A DNA stretch of 55,191 nucleotides from Dehalococcoidales bacterium. GTDB lineage: Bacteria; Chloroflexota; Dehalococcoidia; Dehalococcoidales; UBA5760. The stretch covers positions 1 through 55,191 of the forward strand of contig JAGGZY010000016.1 in assembly GCA_021161775.1 (NCBI GenBank), in the 5' to 3' direction. Shown in pieces: positions 36,334 through 43,145 of this stretch (its first letter is position 1; every line of letters starts with the position of its first letter). The translations under genes and the position numbers were made by a program. The notes under the pieces were generated by a model that saw only the letters and a list, made by a program, of their open reading frames with translations, was not told the origin of the DNA and searched no databases.

Positions 36334-36636
36334 TTATAATCCGGGGAGGTTAAAGCCGCCGGTTATCCCTTTTAGCTTGTTAATAGAGACCTTCTGCGAT
36401 TTAGTAATGGCATCACTGACCGCGGTTAACACCAGTTTCTCCAGTTGCCCGGGGTTTGCCGGGTCAATCACCCCGGGGGAGATTGCTATAGATTGCACCC
36501 TTTGTTGACCATCCATAACAACCTTAACGTCTCCCTTGCCTGAACTGCCTTCGATTATAGTCTGGCTCAGCTCTTGTTGAGCCTTATTTAGCCTGGCTTT
36601 AAGCTGACGGGCTTGATTTATTTGGGATAGATTCAT
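36334..36636 (-). CDS. ybaB: Nucleoid-associated protein YbaB/EbfC
   Basis: 100-aa ORF between dnaX and recR, which is the conserved order. It has the typical Q-rich helical N-terminus followed by a V.V..G pattern. Confidence 0.85.
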
Positions 36637-38294
36637 TTCTCCTCCAGGTTAATAATTTTGCCCCCCATCTCTAAGGCGGCTTTTACCAGATGATTAGCCT
36701 CTGGTGGAGCTGGTCGGTCTGTCTGATTAATACAGCGCACGTGACAGGGACGGCCGATGAAGTTACTCAGTATCCTTTCTGCTATCTGTTGGTTTTGAGG
36801 CTTCTCCATATTCTCCCGATGAAAGGGGTATTTGAATGCCAGGACTATGGTATCATTCTCAAAGGCTACCGGCTTGCCGGAGCTTCTCAGGAAGGCGATA
36901 GCCTGGGTTCGTTTGGTATCCGGGGGGGCTTGCTCGATAACCTGCTTCCAGTGGCGTTTCAGAGACTCAATTTCCTGGCCCGGCTCAGGTGGAGTAATGA
37001 CTACCTCAGAGGTAGGAGTTGGCGTTGGCTTAGGGGTTAGTGTAGGAGTTGGCGTTGGCTTAGGGGTTAGTGTAGGAGTTGGCGTCGGCTTAGGGGTTAG
37101 TGTAGGAGTTGGCGTCGGCTTAGGGGTTGGTATAGAGACTGGTGTTGGTTTGGGCGTTGATTTGGAAATTGGTGTTGGTGTTGGCTGGTCTTCTTCGGGG
37201 TTTAGGGCGCAGTCAACCAGGGCTAGTTCCAGTGGCAGGGTAGAGTAACTATCTAGGCTAGAGCTAAGCTGGCCGAAGAGCTTGACCGCTTTTAGTATCA
37301 GGTTCAGGGGAGCTTTAGTGGCTAGTGTCTTTAGCCGGGCGATGTCCTCGGCGGTGAGGTCAACGGCTTCAGCGGAGCCGGCCTTGATGAGCAGCAGGGC
37401 GCGGAGATAGTCTACCAGTTGCCAATTGAACTGGCGTAAATCCAGTCCATCGCTACGGACACTGTTTATAGTGGTTATTCCAGCGGCGATATCGTTATTT
37501 ATGATGTGGGTTACTATCTCTCGGGCCCGCTGGTCTTCACTGATACCCAGGGTAGTCTGAATCTGGGAGCGATTGATTTCGGTACCATAACTGGTAATTA
37601 GCTGTTCCAGTATATTTTCGGCATCTCGCAGACTGCCGGTGGCGCTTTGGGCAATAAGTCGTAGTGCCTCAGGCTCGATATGAACCTCCTCAGCATCACA
37701 GATACGGGTTAATCGGCTGATGATATCTGTTTGGGGGATGCGGCGAAAATCAAAGCGCTGGCATCGCGATATAATGGTAGGCAGGACTTTATGAATCTCG
37801 GTGGTGGCGAGGCTAAAAATGACCGATGGTGGTGGCTCCTCCAGAGTTTTCAGGAGGGCGTTGAAGGCATTATTACTGAGCATATGGACTTCGTCAATGA
37901 TATAGACCTTGTAACGGGCTTGGCTAGGGGCGTAGTTGGCTCTCTCGCGTAGCTCGCGGATGTTATCGACCCCGGTATTACTGGCGGCGTCAATCTCGAT
38001 GACATCTAACGCCCGGCCCTCGGTAATGGCACAGCACATAGAGCAGGTATTACACGGCTCACCCTGGCCATTAGTCAGGCAATTTACTGCCTTAGCCAAA
38101 ATACGCCCGGTGCTGGTTTTACCGGTGCCTCGGGGTCCACAGAAAAGGTAAGCATGAGCTATCCGACCACTACGCAGGGCATTGAGCAGTGTCCGGGTAA
38201 CATGTTGCTGACCAACTACCTCAGCTAGGGTTTGGGGACGCCATTTACGGTACAGAACCTGAGAAGCCATTTTATCGCTTTTATTATACCCCAT
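36633..38294 (-). CDS. dnaX: DNA polymerase III subunit gamma/tau
   Basis: [18 protein letters not shown] and [15 protein letters not shown] (Walker A) are present. A Zn module CxxC..C..C, the DEVHML motif and the SRC motif follow. The Pro/Thr-rich linker comes later in the protein. Confidence 0.9.
37021..37140. repeat. Tandem 30-bp repeat (~4 copies) inside dnaX encoding a ([10 protein letters not shown])n linker
   Basis: GGCGTTGGCTTAGGGGTTAGTGTAGGAGTT is repeated head-to-tail with 0-1 mismatches for 3 copies and a degenerate 4th. It stays in frame, giving [10 protein letters not shown] repeats in the protein. Confidence 0.85.
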
Positions 38295-38357: not shown

Positions 38358-39533
38358 TTATAATAGTGAAGGTATATCCTTAGAGGCGTCATCTATTTCC
38401 TTGAGCTTACTGGCTAGTTCTTGTTGCTTTTGCTTCACCTCTTTGATAACCACGGTTGATTCTCGGTAGAAGACCTTGACCTTTTCCACATTGTCCAGTT
38501 CGGAGAGGATTACGGCTACATCCAGCAACCCTCTATTTCGGGGGTAGTCGCCGCTCCTGATGATAGCCTTGGGTGCCAAACTTCTCATATAGTCCCCGAG
38601 GTCCTTGACTAGGTCCATGTTCATCTCATTAGCTGGTGCCGAAAGGAGATATAGTGCCCGGTTAGCATCCTGGGGATTACACTTGAGGGATAGCTCACTC
38701 AGGGCTTCATCCATAGCTTGGATTCCCTTGTCGGTTTCACTACTTTTTACCCTGAAGTTGTGCTTTTGGCGTGGGGAAGGTTTGAAGAAGGGTAATTCCG
38801 ATTTACCGTAACCGATTACAGTCCATCCCGCTAGGGTCTGGATGATGTCACCAGCGTCAAGGGTTTTGGAGCCAATGTGTTTTCGCTTTTTCTCCTCACC
38901 AGCGCAGAGCAGATTGTAAAATGGTTCCACTATTGACCGGTTGATTTGGTCGATGTTGTTGCTAACTGAGGAGTCCTTGTGGACATACCTCTGGTTGTCA
39001 ATCAGGAATATAGCATCGGCCGTGGTATTGGCTGACTTCAGGCATACCGCCGAATTATAGATGGTTCTTTCCTCGGTCTCCTCCTCGTGCTGGAAGGGGA
39101 GGATAATAAGATTATAGATCGGTTTATCCATATAGCGCTCTTTTATTAGCTGGGTCACTATGGGTAGTGAGCCGGAGCCGGTGCCGCCGGCGGAGCTGGC
39201 AATTAGCAAAAAGGCATCGGCGTCACGAAAATGCTCGGTGCTCCTGATAGCATCGATAATCTTGTCGCTGTCCTCTCGGGCTATCTCAGCTCCCAGCTCA
39301 TTAATCTTACCTACCCCGTGACCACCAGTCTTTCGTCCTCCAATGAGAATTCGGTGTTTGTAATCAGGTCGGATAGTATATAGACCACTCAGGTCGGCGG
39401 CATCGGTGTTTACCGCGAAAGCGCCGGTAACGATATCAATTCCTCGGTAGCTGCGCGCTCTGCCGTTAAGCCGGGCAAACTCGTCAGCGATTCTACCACC
39501 ACACTGCCCAAAGCCGATGATTACTAATTTCAT
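38358..39533 (-). CDS. Tubulin/FtsZ-superfamily GTPase, non-canonical (paralog A, ~391 aa)
   Basis: From ATG 39533 (GGAG RBS): MKLVIIGFGQCGGRIADEF, AVNTDAADL, GGHGVGK, SSAGGTGSG (T4 signature), LIDNQRY (T7-like). The C-terminal tail is KDIPSLL. The track start 39581 adds 16 unlikely residues. Confidence 0.8.
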   Translation of the reverse strand: MKLVIIGFGQCGGRIADEFARLNGRARSYRGIDIVTGAFAVNTDAADLSGLYTIRPDYKHRILIGGRKTGGHGVGKINELGAEIAREDSDKIIDAIRSTEHFRDADAFLLIASSAGGTGSGSLPIVTQLIKERYMDKPIYNLIILPFQHEEETEERTIYNSAVCLKSANTTADAIFLIDNQRYVHKDSSVSNNIDQINRSIVEPFYNLLCAGEEKKRKHIGSKTLDAGDIIQTLAGWTVIGYGKSELPFFKPSPRQKHNFRVKSSETDKGIQAMDEALSELSLKCNPQDANRALYLLSAPANEMNMDLVKDLGDYMRSLAPKAIIRSGDYPRNRGLLDVAVILSELDNVEKVKVFYRESTVVIKEVKQKQQELASKLKEIDDASKDIPSLL

Positions 39534-39610
39534 TTTCTGCTCCGGTAATCGAATAATTGTATTAATTAAGCCATACTTCATGTATTAATGTCAATTGCGG
39601 TGACGCTGTA

Positions 39611-39639
39611 TTGCAAAACCAAATGGCTTGTCATAAAAT
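39611..39639 (+). promoter_or_regulatory. Sigma-70-like promoter (TTGCAA-N17-TAAAAT) upstream of the 25-residue-repeat protein gene
   Basis: TTGCAA lies at 39611-39616 and TAAAAT at 39634-39639 with a 17-nt spacer. It is about 48 nt upstream of ATG 39687. Confidence 0.4.
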
Positions 39640-39686
39640 AGGGGACATAAAAAGTGCCAGTTGAAATCTAAGGGTGGTTAACCGAG

Positions 39687-40964
39687 ATGGCGGAAAACAG
39701 CATCGGAGCTGTAGAGAAGGCGGTAGCTAGGGCAGAAATACTGAATAAGTCAGCCAGAGAGGCTTCCGAGGCAACAATAATGGCAGCTCGGGAAGCTATC
39801 ATCAGGGCGGAAGAACTGGGCGAATCAGCTAGGAAAGCAGCTGAGGCGGCAACTAGGGCAGCTCAGGAAGCTATTGCTAGGGCAGAGGGGGTAAGACGGG
39901 AGTCGGCAGAGCATACTGAGGCATTGTCAGCGGCGTTTCAGAAAGCTATTGCCAGAGCGGAAGAAACTATCAGGTCAAATAAAGAAGCTACTGAGACTCT
40001 AGTTACCACCGCTAAGGAAGCTATAATTAGGGCGGAGAAGGTGGCTAGGACGGCTAAGGAGGTAGCGGAGATTTCGCTGAAAGAGTCACAGGAGGCGGTA
40101 GGTCGGATTGAGGGGATAGCTATTATGGCTAAGGAGGCGGCGGGTGAAGCTACCGATGTGTCTCGGGAAGCTGCTAGTAGGGCAGGAGAGATAGGCAAAT
40201 CATCGAAGAAGACGGCGGATGAAGCCATCAAGGCATCCCGGAAGGCGGTGGCTAAGGCGGATAAGGTAAGTAAGGCACTTGAGGAGGCTACTGAGGCATC
40301 AACTAAGGCGTTTGATAGAAGCATCGGACGGACGGAGGAAGCTACTCACTGGGCTAGAGAGACCATTGAGATGTCGATTATGGCGTTTGACAAGGCAATA
40401 AGCGGGGCTGAGGGGTTAAATCAGCAAGCCAGGGAGGTAGCTGAGTCGGTGAGAAGAACCTCCCAGGAGGCGATAGCCAGGATAGAGGCGATAAGTAGGG
40501 AGGTTCAAGAGACAGCGGCGGCGGCGGCGAAGGCATCCCAGGAGGCGATAGCCAGAGCGGAGGGGGTAGCTAGAGGGGTCAAGGGAACAGCTGAAGGGGC
40601 AAAGCGGGCCGCGGGGCTGGCTGTGTTGCCGATTAGGGAGACAGCAGCCTCAGGTACCCGAGCCGAAAAGCTGGTGGAAGCGGAGGTTGAGTCAGTTCAG
40701 GCAAAGCGGATGGGGAAGCTGGTGGCAAAGTTGGTTAAGGCAACAAGCCCTGCGGAGAAGGCGACTCCGCCAGCTAAAACAGCTAAGCCGGAAGCCAAGC
40801 CGGAGGTCAAACCAGAAGTCAAGCCGGAGGCCAAGTCGGCTGAGGAGGTAGCTAAGCTTGCCAGAAAGAGGATGGAGAAACGGCTGGAGTCGCTGACCAA
40901 AATGTATGCCACCGGTAAAGATAAGAATTTTGATGAAGGATCTGAGGATAGAGAGGACAAGTAA
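39687..40964 (+). CDS. Ala/Glu-rich helical repeat protein (12 x 25-residue repeats) with a Lys/Pro/Glu-rich C-terminal region
   Basis: 425-aa ORF with no TM segment or signal peptide. It contains repeats of (E/K)A(I/V)xRAE-x18. The tail contains KPEAKPEVKPEVKPEAK and a charged C-terminus. Confidence 0.8.
   Translation: MAENSIGAVEKAVARAEILNKSAREASEATIMAAREAIIRAEELGESARKAAEAATRAAQEAIARAEGVRRESAEHTEALSAAFQKAIARAEETIRSNKEATETLVTTAKEAIIRAEKVARTAKEVAEISLKESQEAVGRIEGIAIMAKEAAGEATDVSREAASRAGEIGKSSKKTADEAIKASRKAVAKADKVSKALEEATEASTKAFDRSIGRTEEATHWARETIEMSIMAFDKAISGAEGLNQQAREVAESVRRTSQEAIARIEAISREVQETAAAAAKASQEAIARAEGVARGVKGTAEGAKRAAGLAVLPIRETAASGTRAEKLVEAEVESVQAKRMGKLVAKLVKATSPAEKATPPAKTAKPEAKPEVKPEVKPEAKSAEEVAKLARKRMEKRLESLTKMYATGKDKNFDEGSEDREDK
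39717..40616 (+). repeat. Twelve tandem 75-nt (25-codon) coding repeats
   Basis: Counted by hand. KAVARAE, EAIIRAE, EAIARAE, KAIARAE, EAIIRAE, EAVGRIE, EAASRAG, KAVAKAD, RSIGRTE, KAISGAE, EAIARIE and EAIARAE each start exactly 25 residues after the previous one. Confidence 0.85.
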
Positions 40965-41056: not shown

Positions 41057-41623
41057 ATGAGTCAGGATGAGCGGGTTCCAAAGGTTCAGAGACAGGTTGG
41101 GCAGCAGGATAGCAAGACAGAGAAGCCGGTCGGACAGCCAGCGGTAAAGCCGGTTGAGTCACCGGCGGCAAAGCCTTCTGAAGTTCGTGCTTCCTTGAGT
41201 GAAATTCTGGGGCGAGCGGAGAAGGCATATGCGGCTTACACTGATGCTCAAAAAGAGGTGGCCAAGGCTTACCGAGATAGCGAACTGGAAGCTGAGAAGA
41301 GTTATCGGGATAGCCTGCGGCAGGCGAGGAATGCCCGTGATGAAGGTATGATACAGGCTTTGAAGGTTCGTGATGAAACATCGGTTAAAATTCTGGCGGC
41401 TCGTACTGAGGCTATGGCTCAGGCGGAACAGATTTATCGGAAGGCTATCGGACAGGCGGAACAGGTGGCAAAGGATGGTGAACTGCGAGCCAAGAGCACC
41501 TATGATGAAAGTGTCAAGCAGATTTTAAGGACCTATGAGGAAGCGATAGCTCGGGCAGATAGAAAACGTACCGAAACTATAGACCAAGCCTGGAAAATCT
41601 ACAGTCGGGAAAGTGAGTCATAG
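41057..41623 (+). CDS. Small helical protein related in motif to the upstream repeat protein
   Basis: 188-aa ORF. The Pro/Lys/Gln-rich N-terminus (KPVGQPAVKPVESPAAKP) is followed by helical segments carrying ILGRAEK, KAIGQAEQ and EAIARADR, the same AIxRAE-type motif. The spacing is less regular. Confidence 0.7.
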   Translation: MSQDERVPKVQRQVGQQDSKTEKPVGQPAVKPVESPAAKPSEVRASLSEILGRAEKAYAAYTDAQKEVAKAYRDSELEAEKSYRDSLRQARNARDEGMIQALKVRDETSVKILAARTEAMAQAEQIYRKAIGQAEQVAKDGELRAKSTYDESVKQILRTYEEAIARADRKRTETIDQAWKIYSRESES

Positions 41624-41671: not shown

Positions 41672-42835
41672 CTATAACAGTGAGGGGATGTCCTTGAAGG
41701 CTTCGGTTAGGTCTTGATGTTCAGTCTCTATCCCTTCCCGTTTTCGCTTGATGGTAGCGACGAGGTCAATGGTCTGGGTGAAGTAGTCTGTAATCTTGTT
41801 CACCCCACTGAGTTCAGAGAGGATTACGGTAATGTTCACGGCTGACTTTCCACGAGGGTAGTCTCCGGTTCTTATTGTTGCCTCCGGAGCAATGTGCTTG
41901 AGATGAGCCCCGATGTCCCTGACCAGGGTCATATCCATTTCCTTGGGTGGTGCTGAGAGGAGATATAGCCCCCGGCCAGCATCGGCAGGATTACAGCGGA
42001 GGGATAGCTCACTTATGGCGTTATTAATTACCTGAACCCCTCGTTGGTTTTCGGTTATCTTATCCCTGAAGTCAAGGGGGCTTCTGCGGCGTCCTATTGA
42101 GGACTGACTGTAGCCCATCACCGTCCACCCGGCTAGGGTCTGAATTATATCTCCGGCATCAAGTATCCTCGACCCAATGTACTGGGGCTTGGTCTCTTCA
42201 CCAGCACAAAGCAGGTCATAAAACGGTTCCACTATCATAGCGTTGATTTTAGCCAAGTTGCCTCTGATGGAGATGTTCTTACTGATATACCGCTGGTTAT
42301 CAATCAGAATTACGGCATCAGCCACCAGGTAAGCCGATTTAAGACAGGTAGCTGAGTTATAGACCGTTCTCCCCTCGGTTTCCTCTTCATGCTGGAAGGG
42401 AAGGGCAATAAGATTGTATATCGGCTTTTCGATATAGCGTTCTTTTAACTGCTGGGTTAAGGTGGCTATCGCCCCTGAGCCGGTTCCGCCGGCGGAGCCA
42501 GCAACCAGTAGAAAGGCGTCGGTCTCGGAGAGGTTTTCGGTTGACCTAACGGCATCAATAATCTTATCGCTGTCCTCTCGGGCTATCTCGGCTCCCAGCT
42601 CATTAATCTTGCCTACGCCATGTCCCCCGGTCTTGCTACTGCCGATAATGATGCGGTGTTGGTAGTCAGGTCGGATAGTAGCCAGCCCGCTCAGGTCAGC
42701 AACATCGGTGTTAACGGCGAGGACTCCGGTGATGATGTCCAGCTTACGCTCAATACGCGCCCTCATCCCCAGCCGGGCAAACTCGTCGGCAATTCGGCCT
42801 CCGCATTGTCCAAAACCTATAACCAGTAATTTCAC
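41672..42835 (-). CDS. Tubulin/FtsZ-superfamily GTPase, non-canonical (paralog B, 387 aa)
   Basis: MKLLVIGFGQCGGRIADEF, AVNTDVADL, GGHGVGK, GSAGGTGSG, LIDNQRY, and the C-terminal tail KDIPSLL. It is collinear with paralog A over its whole length. Confidence 0.8.
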   Translation of the reverse strand: MKLLVIGFGQCGGRIADEFARLGMRARIERKLDIITGVLAVNTDVADLSGLATIRPDYQHRIIIGSSKTGGHGVGKINELGAEIAREDSDKIIDAVRSTENLSETDAFLLVAGSAGGTGSGAIATLTQQLKERYIEKPIYNLIALPFQHEEETEGRTVYNSATCLKSAYLVADAVILIDNQRYISKNISIRGNLAKINAMIVEPFYDLLCAGEETKPQYIGSRILDAGDIIQTLAGWTVMGYSQSSIGRRRSPLDFRDKITENQRGVQVINNAISELSLRCNPADAGRGLYLLSAPPKEMDMTLVRDIGAHLKHIAPEATIRTGDYPRGKSAVNITVILSELSGVNKITDYFTQTIDLVATIKRKREGIETEHQDLTEAFKDIPSLL

Positions 42836-42839
42836 TTTA

Positions 42840-43145
42840 CTACCATTTCAGAATATTCTTAATAACAGTGGAATGATTTTTCTGGATAATCTTGGTTGCT
42901 GTAGTGTTTACCTTGCCCGCCCCGTGGCCAAAGGTTCTTAGCTCTCCGGGCAGCATCCGATGGTGTTTACCCTTGGGAAGATATTCCAGTCTTTTCAGGT
43001 CTACCTCGCTGGTGTTGACAGCGAAGGCATCAGCCAGAATAGTGAGCCTCCGGTTAAGTATTGACCGGGAGCAATTGTTAATCGCACAAAACTGGTCGGC
43101 AATACTACATCCACATTGCCCTAGACCAATAACAACTAATCTCAT
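42840..43145 (-). CDS. N-terminal-only tubulin/FtsZ-like paralog (101 aa; possible pseudogene or partial tandem duplicate)
   Basis: MRLVVIGLGQCGCSIADQF...FAVNTSEVDL...GHGAGKVNTTATKIIQ aligns with the first ~100 residues of paralog B. It stops before the GGTGSG signature, 4 nt upstream of paralog B's start. Confidence 0.6.
   Translation of the reverse strand: MRLVVIGLGQCGCSIADQFCAINNCSRSILNRRLTILADAFAVNTSEVDLKRLEYLPKGKHHRMLPGELRTFGHGAGKVNTTATKIIQKNHSTVIKNILKW

Follow-up and report, generated by a model that had tools for sequence, protein, structure and literature searches.

What might a protein made of a dozen exact 25-residue repeats be doing between two genes for tubulin-like GTPases? The question is raised by contig JAGGZY010000016.1 of a Dehalococcoidales bacterium (assembly GCA_021161775.1), of which positions 1 to 55,191 were analysed as a whole and are referred to below as the window. 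An earlier note, made from the letters of the window alone, had drawn attention to a 425-residue protein, here called REP, to a possible link between its function and the neighbouring GTPases, and to a 188-residue downstream protein, here called P188. Judging from gene neighbourhood and conservation, we favour with moderate confidence the interpretation that REP acts in the cytoplasm as a rod-shaped accessory protein serving specifically the CetZ2-type branch of the CetZ-like cytoskeleton of Dehalococcoidia; it probably belongs to a bacterial cytoskeleton that has not been studied so far. REP is composed of the following parts:

39687..40964, forward strand: the REP gene, 425 codons for an Ala/Glu/Lys/Arg-rich helical-repeat protein, stop codon within the coordinates
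39717..40616, forward strand: repeat array, residues 11-310, twelve 25-residue units, predicted helical rod with 25/7 periodicity
40617..40835, forward strand: post-array region, residues 311-383, a short predicted helix (329-350) followed by a low-complexity P/E/A/K linker (PEAK/PEVK-like)
40836..40961, forward strand: conserved C-terminal module, residues 384-425, with a basic stretch, an amphipathic helix (...RMEKRLESLTKMY...) and an acidic tail

It had been claimed that the twelve units follow each other in strict 25-residue register without insertion or deletion. Breaking the sequence into lines of 25 that start at residue 11 gave exactly the motifs on which this claim was based, and a hidden Markov model (HMM) built from the twelve units located them at residues 11, 36 and so on up to 286, with all 11 spacings equal to 25 and the array at 39717..40616 as claimed. 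The self-correlation of residues 11-310, scored with BLOSUM62, was 1.48 at lag 25, whereas in 1000 shuffled sequences the maximum over lags 5-59 had a mean of 0.057 and never exceeded 0.273. Further peaks were found at lags 50, 75 and 100 (1.09-1.19), and minor ones at lags 7, 11, 14 and 18. Fourier analysis of hydrophobicity gave a single dominant peak at 3.57 residues (25/7) with a power of 416, the next peak reaching 89 and the highest power among 200 shuffles 105.

The chemistry of the unit was derived from a profile that combined 269 units of 21 orthologues and was placed on a 25/7 helical net, on which the 25 residues of a unit make seven helical turns (7+7+11). The apolar residues form a stripe about 160 degrees wide, with Ala and Ser in its centre and the beta-branched Ile and Val at its edges: positions 2, 6, 13 and 17 are Ala in 65-84% of the units, position 3 is a large apolar residue in 80%, and apolar residues are also found at positions 9 and 21. 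Every unit keeps the polar face, with acidic residues at E7 (92%), E18 (80%) and E15 (73%) and basic residues at R5, K11, K14 and R22 (70-78%). Along this face runs a conserved ladder of i/i+4 salt bridges; opposite-charge pairs at this distance number 40 in REP, compared to 17.0 ± 3.5 in 1000 shuffles (maximum 29). Pro is nearly absent (0.06%).

AlphaFold2, run on REP with 17 orthologues in the alignment, yielded a model with a mean predicted local distance difference test score (pLDDT) of 59.8. It contains helices at residues 3-153 and 158-312 (near-continuous over 3-312), a short helix at 329-350 and a C-terminal helix at 384-415, for which the block mean of pLDDT was 92; values below 50 were obtained over 302-332, 341-367 and 369-382. 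Residues 11-310 are predicted to be a near-continuous, very stable and almost untwisted amphipathic alpha-helix, about 45 nm long at 1.5 Å per residue. The period of 3.57, the two long predicted helices and the scarcity of Pro bear out the suggestion, made in the earlier note, of a helical rod with 25/7 rather than heptad periodicity. Canonical heptad coiled coils have a period of 3.5 (7/2) and about two large apolar core residues per seven, whereas the hydrophobic period of REP is 3.57 (within 0.03 of 25/7, or 3.571, in 20 of the 21 orthologues), with about three mainly Ile/Val/Leu positions (3, 9 and 21) per 25. With single alpha-helices of the ER/K type REP shares the excess of i/i+4 charge pairs, but such helices have no continuous hydrophobic seam, whereas REP has a 3.57-residue moment and the broad stripe described above.

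Downstream of the array, the linker differs in length and composition among the orthologues, and its DNA contains an array with a 12-bp period (40781-40839, detected by Tandem Repeats Finder). The best-conserved part of the family is the C-terminus, where a basic stretch is followed by the motif (I/V)ExRL(E/D)xLA(K/R)MY (also given as RLExLxKMY or IExRLExLAKMY) in an amphipathic helix carrying Leu/Leu/Met/Tyr on one face. R399, L403 and M406 do not vary among 17 orthologues, in which L400 and K411 are nearly invariant as well; the helix is always trailed by a strongly acidic tail of 10-25 residues.

The age of the repeat can be read from its divergence. Mean pairwise identity between the units is 51% in DNA (range 31-63%) and 34% in protein, Tandem Repeats Finder reported no 75-bp array in REP, and among codon positions the third is the least alike (0.41, compared to 0.54 for the first and 0.57 for the second), in agreement with the earlier statement that the DNA copies had diverged. 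The short exact DNA stretch singled out at that time, a 20-mer, is indeed present in two copies, but the second starts at 40536, not at 40537. When species were compared, 5-9 of 11 units found their best match in the unit of the same number; the array is therefore older than the genus and was not homogenised. Taking into account this correspondence, the low DNA identity and the fact that 249 of 344 unit spacings counted in the 21 orthologues are exactly 25, we agree with the earlier view that the register is held by selection and not by recent duplication. As to the remaining spacings, 8 are 50 or 100 and 87 are not multiples of 25; 62 of these 87 (mostly 11, 22, 18, 29 and 14) hold the helical phase within 0.15 turn, which is expected for 26% of random integers. 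The longest exact runs of units among the orthologues are 18, 17 and 14.

REP was detected in 31 of 41 related genomes (E <= 0.01). These genomes are kin, so that the counts do not represent independent events, and several are incomplete metagenome-assembled genomes (MAGs). Twelve of the 14 other genomes of the same genus encode REP with about 50% identity, and a thirteenth gave a weak match only (E 0.0026); relatives at the level of the order are 30-45% identical. Orthologues across Dehalococcoidales retain both the 25-residue register and the 3.57-residue periodicity. When 1.84 billion representative proteins were searched with a profile, there were 436 matches at E <= 1e-3, 95 at E <= 1e-10 and 9 at E <= 1e-30, and the C-terminal motif was present in 58 of the best 150, many being gene fragments. 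A word-indexed search gave no match at E <= 1e-3 (lengths 233-744), whereas genome searches and exhaustive profile searches do find the family.

No Pfam or NCBIfam family was matched by the REP of the window. Membership in a known family unrelated to GTPases (phasin, LEA or apolipoprotein-like) had been named as what would break the functional link, but neither Phasin_2 (PF09361) nor ApoLp-III was matched even at E <= 1. Among the 17 orthologues there were scattered matches to helical families (BORCS6 in 7, Phasin_2 in 2 at E <= 0.01, ApoLp-III in 2, ISG65-75 in 1). The nearest ESM-Atlas clusters are hypothetical proteins of Chloroflexota, one of which has Phasin_2 on 12% of its members. A Foldseek search of the PDB with the REP model found no match. 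The best VIA-align hits were generic long helices (axonemal coiled coils, tropomyosin, stathmin) with a Z of at most 8.9 and a root-mean-square deviation above 100 Å; for long helices a Z of about 13 is advised, therefore these hits are not discriminating. The only PDB sequences matching the REP profile were de novo designed helical proteins (e.g. 4uos, 4tql and 6xr1; E 3e-10 to 1e-2), which, like REP, have idealised Ala/Ile cores and Glu/Lys/Arg surfaces. Because designed proteins are artificial, this similarity must be compositional or convergent and is silent on function.

What ties REP to a cytoskeleton is its neighbourhood, in which the following features were distinguished:

38358..39581, reverse strand: CetZ1-type tubulin-like GTPase gene, divergent from REP (Pfam Tubulin 5e-32, CetZ_C 4.9e-18)
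39582..39686, strand not assigned: intergenic region of 105 bp that separates the divergently oriented CetZ1-type gene and REP and contains a promoter-like site at 39611-39639 (forward strand)
41057..41623, forward strand: P188 gene, 188 residues, one long helix of hendecad repeats preceded by a disordered N-terminus
41672..42835, reverse strand: CetZ2-type tubulin-like GTPase gene, convergent with REP and P188 (Pfam Tubulin 2e-32, CetZ_C 2e-15)
42840..43145, reverse strand: remnant of a third CetZ-like paralogue, 101 residues, N-terminal quarter only (Pfam Tubulin 5e-07, below cut-off)

The promoter-like site, found by consensus scan alone, agrees with the hexamers at 9 of 12 positions, and such sites are not more frequent in 39582..39686 than in shuffled sequences.

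The assignment of the two flanking genes as tubulin-like, already made in the earlier note, was confirmed by Pfam scores of 112 and 113 bits for Tubulin (cut-off 33) and of 65.7 and 57.1 bits for CetZ_C (cut-off 21.6). Among solved structures their products are closer to CetZ (4b46, 1.3e-44; 4b45, 4.7e-24; 3zid, 4.8e-13) than to FtsZ (best 5e-09) or to tubulins (about 1e-06), the match to 4b46 at 1.3e-44 being the best for the CetZ2-type protein, and with the NCBIfam ftsZ model they scored 61 bits, far below the cut-off of 295. The GGTGSG motif and the acidic residues D226/D229 are invariant and identity across the order is 60-78%; by these features the genes look functional. While archaeal CetZ proteins have the same domains and are the closest structures, the host here is not the usual archaeal one: the window contains bacterial genes (RecO/RecR/DnaX/YbaB context), and the contigs of the relatives are Dehalococcoidia or Dehalococcoidales MAGs. 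Unlike archaeal CetZ, the flanking genes also encode an FtsZ-like C-terminal peptide. All 52 CetZ-like proteins compared end in a conserved peptide, mostly (K/R)D(I/V)P(S/T)LL and, in a third clade, KNLPxL. The tail ...KDIPSLL resembles that of the FtsZ of the same genome (...LDVPSFLRQ), which is encoded beside FtsA on another contig (G000:C18:30898-32049); CetZ-like filaments might therefore share tail-binding partners with FtsZ.

Linkage between REP and the CetZ2-type gene was assessed in several samples. In 20 loci chosen for holding a REP homologue, the CetZ2-type gene was adjacent and convergent in 17, and P188 lay between the two genes in 14. Twenty further loci around other CetZ-like genes gave no REP match by BLAST, one of them being the diverged case described below. 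In a tree of the 52 CetZ-like proteins, obtained by a quick IQ-TREE search with support from the Shimodaira-Hasegawa-like approximate likelihood ratio test (SH-aLRT), the CetZ2-type proteins formed a clade of 20 members with a support of 100. Eighteen of these are REP-adjacent by BLAST and one more by inspection (19/20), the latter adjoining a diverged 490-residue helical protein that ends in ...MDALAQMFARSDG followed by an acidic tail. Across the class, sampled evenly with 301 genomes, CetZ-like genes were found in 53 genomes, REP in 17 and both in 15, and in all 15 the two lay on the same contig, no more than about 2 kb apart. Seven genomes of the order whose tree-placed CetZ-like genes all fall outside the CetZ2 clade yielded no REP. 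The CetZ1-type gene usually lies between GAPDH and DnaX, without REP nearby, in most other families of the order. The functional link with the neighbouring GTPases that had been proposed is supported by this conserved synteny, which concerns one CetZ-like clade.

P188, the other protein of this gene group, matched no Pfam or NCBIfam family. AlphaFold2 predicted for it a single 148-residue helix (residues 40-187, pLDDT above 95), its period is 3.655-3.695 (about 11/3) in all of 14 orthologues, and the indels in its alignment are 11, 22 and 11 columns wide. It also has conserved Tyr/Trp positions. The earlier note had P188 reusing the AIxRAE motif of REP, which we could not uphold: there is a lone AIARAD, P188 has its own 11-residue period, and the two proteins are not demonstrably homologous (hhalign probability 7.4%). 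The similar helix lengths in this genome had prompted a model in which a folded-back REP and P188 form a three-helix bundle. It was dropped because the lengths do not co-vary across loci and the periodicities differ.

Under the favoured interpretation, the REP rod would use its stripe of small residues to pair or bundle, either with itself or on the surface of a partner, and would thereby provide a stiff, nearly untwisted scaffold. A possible role for the C-terminal module is that of a docking peptide by which the scaffold is linked to the CetZ2-type polymer or to its complex. Accessory proteins of bacterial tubulin homologues include ZapA/ZapB, EzrA, SepF, ZipA, TubY and BtubC/Bklc, many of which are coiled coils or flexibly linked. 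These partners of FtsZ, TubZ and BtubAB differ from REP and P188, neither of which matched their families in Pfam or NCBIfam, and the polymer here is CetZ-like. The tetratricopeptide repeat (TPR) is the fold of the BtubAB partner, and one REP-like protein is fused to TPR repeats. These bacteria are not known to have a peptidoglycan wall. By analogy with archaeal CetZ, the whole system could act on cell shape or envelope organisation; Haloferax CetZ1 and CetZ2 are described, in the part of the source available to us, as controlling disc and rod cell morphology. Pili, biosynthesis and sugar-epimerase genes are listed for archaeal cetZ neighbourhoods, and no helical-repeat partner is among them, in the available text of PMC9856176.

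Several observations weigh against the role proposed for REP. About three large apolar residues per 25 are few for a classical two-stranded coiled coil, and basic residues stand at the borders between polar and apolar faces, a charge layout that also resembles that of amphipathic helices binding lipid surfaces. The sporadic Phasin_2 and ApoLp-III matches mentioned above point in the same direction. Genera differ in the number of units, which can be as low as about 10 or exceed 18. The linkage to CetZ2 is entirely genomic, and it has gaps: the twentieth gene of the CetZ2 clade has a DUF1464 protein and no REP as neighbour; a 779-residue REP-like protein is fused to TPR repeats with no CetZ neighbour detected; one genome (95% complete) has REP at a contig end and no CetZ-like match; and a 1624-residue REP-like frame occurs in a genome without a CetZ-like match at E <= 1e-40.

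Three of these loci can be described more closely. At the REP-less CetZ2-clade gene (L076:5457-6515, forward strand; G020:C170) the DUF1464 assignment of the neighbour has an E of 3.4e-94, its N-terminus appears actin/ASKHA-like by eye, and a radical-SAM-like gene is also nearby. The 779-residue protein (L026:4651-6990, reverse strand; G031:C8) has 14 units in exact register, the TPR part (TPR_1, 7.7e-23) replaces the usual C-terminal motif, and there is no CetZ-like gene within the 12 kb covered at this locus. The 1624-residue frame (G092:C114:4410-8690, reverse strand) contains several REP-like matches with E down to 2e-21, in a genome that is 73% complete.

The alternative that survives best, which we regard as a tentative possibility, is that REP is a self-assembling, intermediate-filament-like scaffold that is co-regulated with CetZ2 or acts in parallel to it, with no direct binding to the polymer. 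Long bacterial cytoskeletal rods with non-canonical repeat lengths are represented by crescentin, FilP and Scy. The rods are alike, but the core of REP is mostly Ala/Ser and no homology was detected in Pfam or NCBIfam; we know of no pairing of crescentin, FilP or Scy with tubulin homologues. Such a scaffold would agree with the long uninterrupted helix and its conserved apolar stripe, with the different rod lengths between genera, and with the occurrence of REP-like genes away from CetZ genes, such as the TPR fusion. It would agree also with the charge pattern being kept in every unit, as it is in rods assembling with a fixed stagger, for instance the myosin rod. Paracrystals of SF-assemblin are a further example, according to the available text of PMC2119799. 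On the other hand, a crude scan of charge complementarity revealed no outstanding stagger, parallel or antiparallel, all values lying between -0.13 and +0.12 per residue when zero shift was left aside. The C-terminal motif, which is the most conserved stretch of the protein and follows a flexible linker, has more the look of a docking peptide than of an element for polymerisation, and the synteny is specific to one CetZ clade.

More doubtful is the idea that REP is a bacterial analogue of microtubule-associated proteins and binds laterally to CetZ2 filaments in lattice register, in the manner of stathmin, tropomyosin or SF-assemblin, with one 25-residue unit per subunit. Acting as a template or stabiliser, REP could then set the curvature of filaments and also their length, at 12 subunits here and at up to 18 or more in other genera; filaments so determined might shape the cells, the C-terminal motif could cap or anchor the assembly, and P188 might be a second, differently pitched strand. 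Tropomyosin, nebulin and stathmin are elongated helical proteins in which an internal repeat matches the subunit spacing of the bound filament. Protofilaments of the tubulin/FtsZ type have a subunit spacing of 4.0-4.4 nm. The REP unit measures only about 3.7 nm and would therefore fit solely on the inner side of a curved protofilament; compared to tropomyosin, nebulin and stathmin, REP also differs in that its unit number is not fixed and that its tie to a filament is genomic. Tropomyosin and stathmin did occur among the structure matches of REP, at Z values of 7.0-7.9, below the level that is meaningful for long helices. A one-to-one ruler on a straight protofilament was considered as well and is disfavoured by the same difference in spacing and by the variable number of units. 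Because that number varies between genera, a generic rod fits better than a fixed ruler.

The closest functional analogy documented for REP is that with SF-assemblin/beta-giardin, although this family is absent among the Pfam matches of REP and 17 orthologues. SF-assemblin and beta-giardin are eukaryotic proteins of striated fibres associated with microtubules. SF-assemblin is a segmented coiled coil of 29-residue units (four heptads plus a skip), in which acidic clusters about 4 nm apart were thought by the authors to be possibly related to tubulin binding (PMC2119799, available part). As far as that part of the source goes, a short non-helical head and a long helical rod of exact non-heptad units are common to both, the units being 25 rather than 29 residues long in REP and forming runs of 10-18 in its orthologues. 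Charge clusters recur every 4 nm or so in one and every 3.7 nm in the other, and in both the sequence drifts while unit length and construction principles are kept. Both are also tied to polymers of the tubulin family, in the case of REP through genomic association. REP is unlike SF-assemblin (29/8 = 3.63) in its 25/7 period of 3.57, in its extra linker and conserved, docking-like C-terminal motif, and in being bacterial.

We consider it improbable that the C-terminal helix is a membrane-targeting element and REP a tether or spacer between filament and membrane, comparable to ZipA or FtsA and no component of a lattice or bundle. The basic stretch, the amphipathic helix with its Leu/Leu/Met/Tyr face and the flexible connection to the rod could be explained in this way, and no membrane anchor is apparent in the CetZ-like proteins themselves, while their tail resembles that of FtsZ. 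However, the acidic tail of 10-25 residues should repel anionic membranes, known membrane-targeting helices are located at the very C-terminus, and the FtsA encoded in the genome could already tether proteins with an FtsZ-like tail.

Least probable of all, and indeed very unlikely, is a surface-active amphipathic coat of phasin, apolipoprotein or LEA type on a hydrophobic inclusion or a membrane, or a stress protectant, with the GTPases adjacent by chance: the Ala-rich amphipathic helix with its bordering basic residues, the Phasin_2 (best E 1.7e-07) and ApoLp-III matches of the orthologues and the Phasin_2-containing Atlas cluster speak for it, but the window REP has no such match, neither PhaC_N nor Phasin_2 was found in the source genome (0.93 Mb, 98.9% complete) under conditions in which positive controls, including a control genome, were detected, the apolar face is mostly Ala/Ser and not Leu/Phe, the adjacency to one CetZ clade is conserved across the order and beyond, and the C-terminal motif and acidic tail would be left unexplained.

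Some features of the surroundings may be mentioned. The 101-residue open reading frame (ORF) at 42840..43145 is 66% identical over 99 residues to the N-terminus of a third paralogue that is present at full length in another genome of the genus, where it likewise lies between the CetZ2-type gene and GAPDH; since the ORF ends just before the start codon of the CetZ2-type gene, it looks like a deletion remnant. In a complete genome of the order (L080:6171-7267, reverse strand; G023:C1), three small genes, coding for a SHOCT-like/DUF2089-C protein, a 94-residue hydrophobic protein and a DUF2089 helix-turn-helix protein, lie between DnaX and the CetZ1-type gene. The DnaX (tau/gamma) gene of the window (36633..38294, reverse strand) contains near-identical 12-residue repeats in its linker, at about 36900..37150, and the antisense of these repeats reads GVGVGLGV and appears as a spurious periodic ORF.

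Bacterial CetZ-like sequences in Dehalococcoidia are mentioned in passing in the available part of PMC9871819. In published proteomics of Dehalococcoides mccartyi BTF08, the tubulin/FtsZ GTPase btf_0551 and the nearby hypothetical protein btf_0548 were indicators of the pure culture with disc-shaped cells and not of the co-culture with barrel-shaped cells, and btf_0549 and btf_0550 are also hypothetical (PMC8163811, available part). As btf_0548-0550 could not be mapped to REP or P188, PMC8163811 was not used as evidence for REP. A description of REP was not found in the literature searched.

CetZ proteins are usually described as cell-shape tubulins specific to archaea. To our knowledge, little has been established about their partners or mode of action even in Haloferax. 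The locus studied here points to a CetZ-like system of bacteria belonging to the same class as the organohalide-respiring Dehalococcoides, with one CetZ-like paralogue clade locked to two uncharacterised long-helix proteins of non-heptad periodicity, 25/7 and 11/3. REP itself illustrates how strictly a 25-residue helical unit can be conserved in a natural protein, one with separable parts, a rod, a linker and a C-terminal motif, and together with P188 it would make a concrete candidate accessory set for a tubulin-family polymer acting outside cell division.

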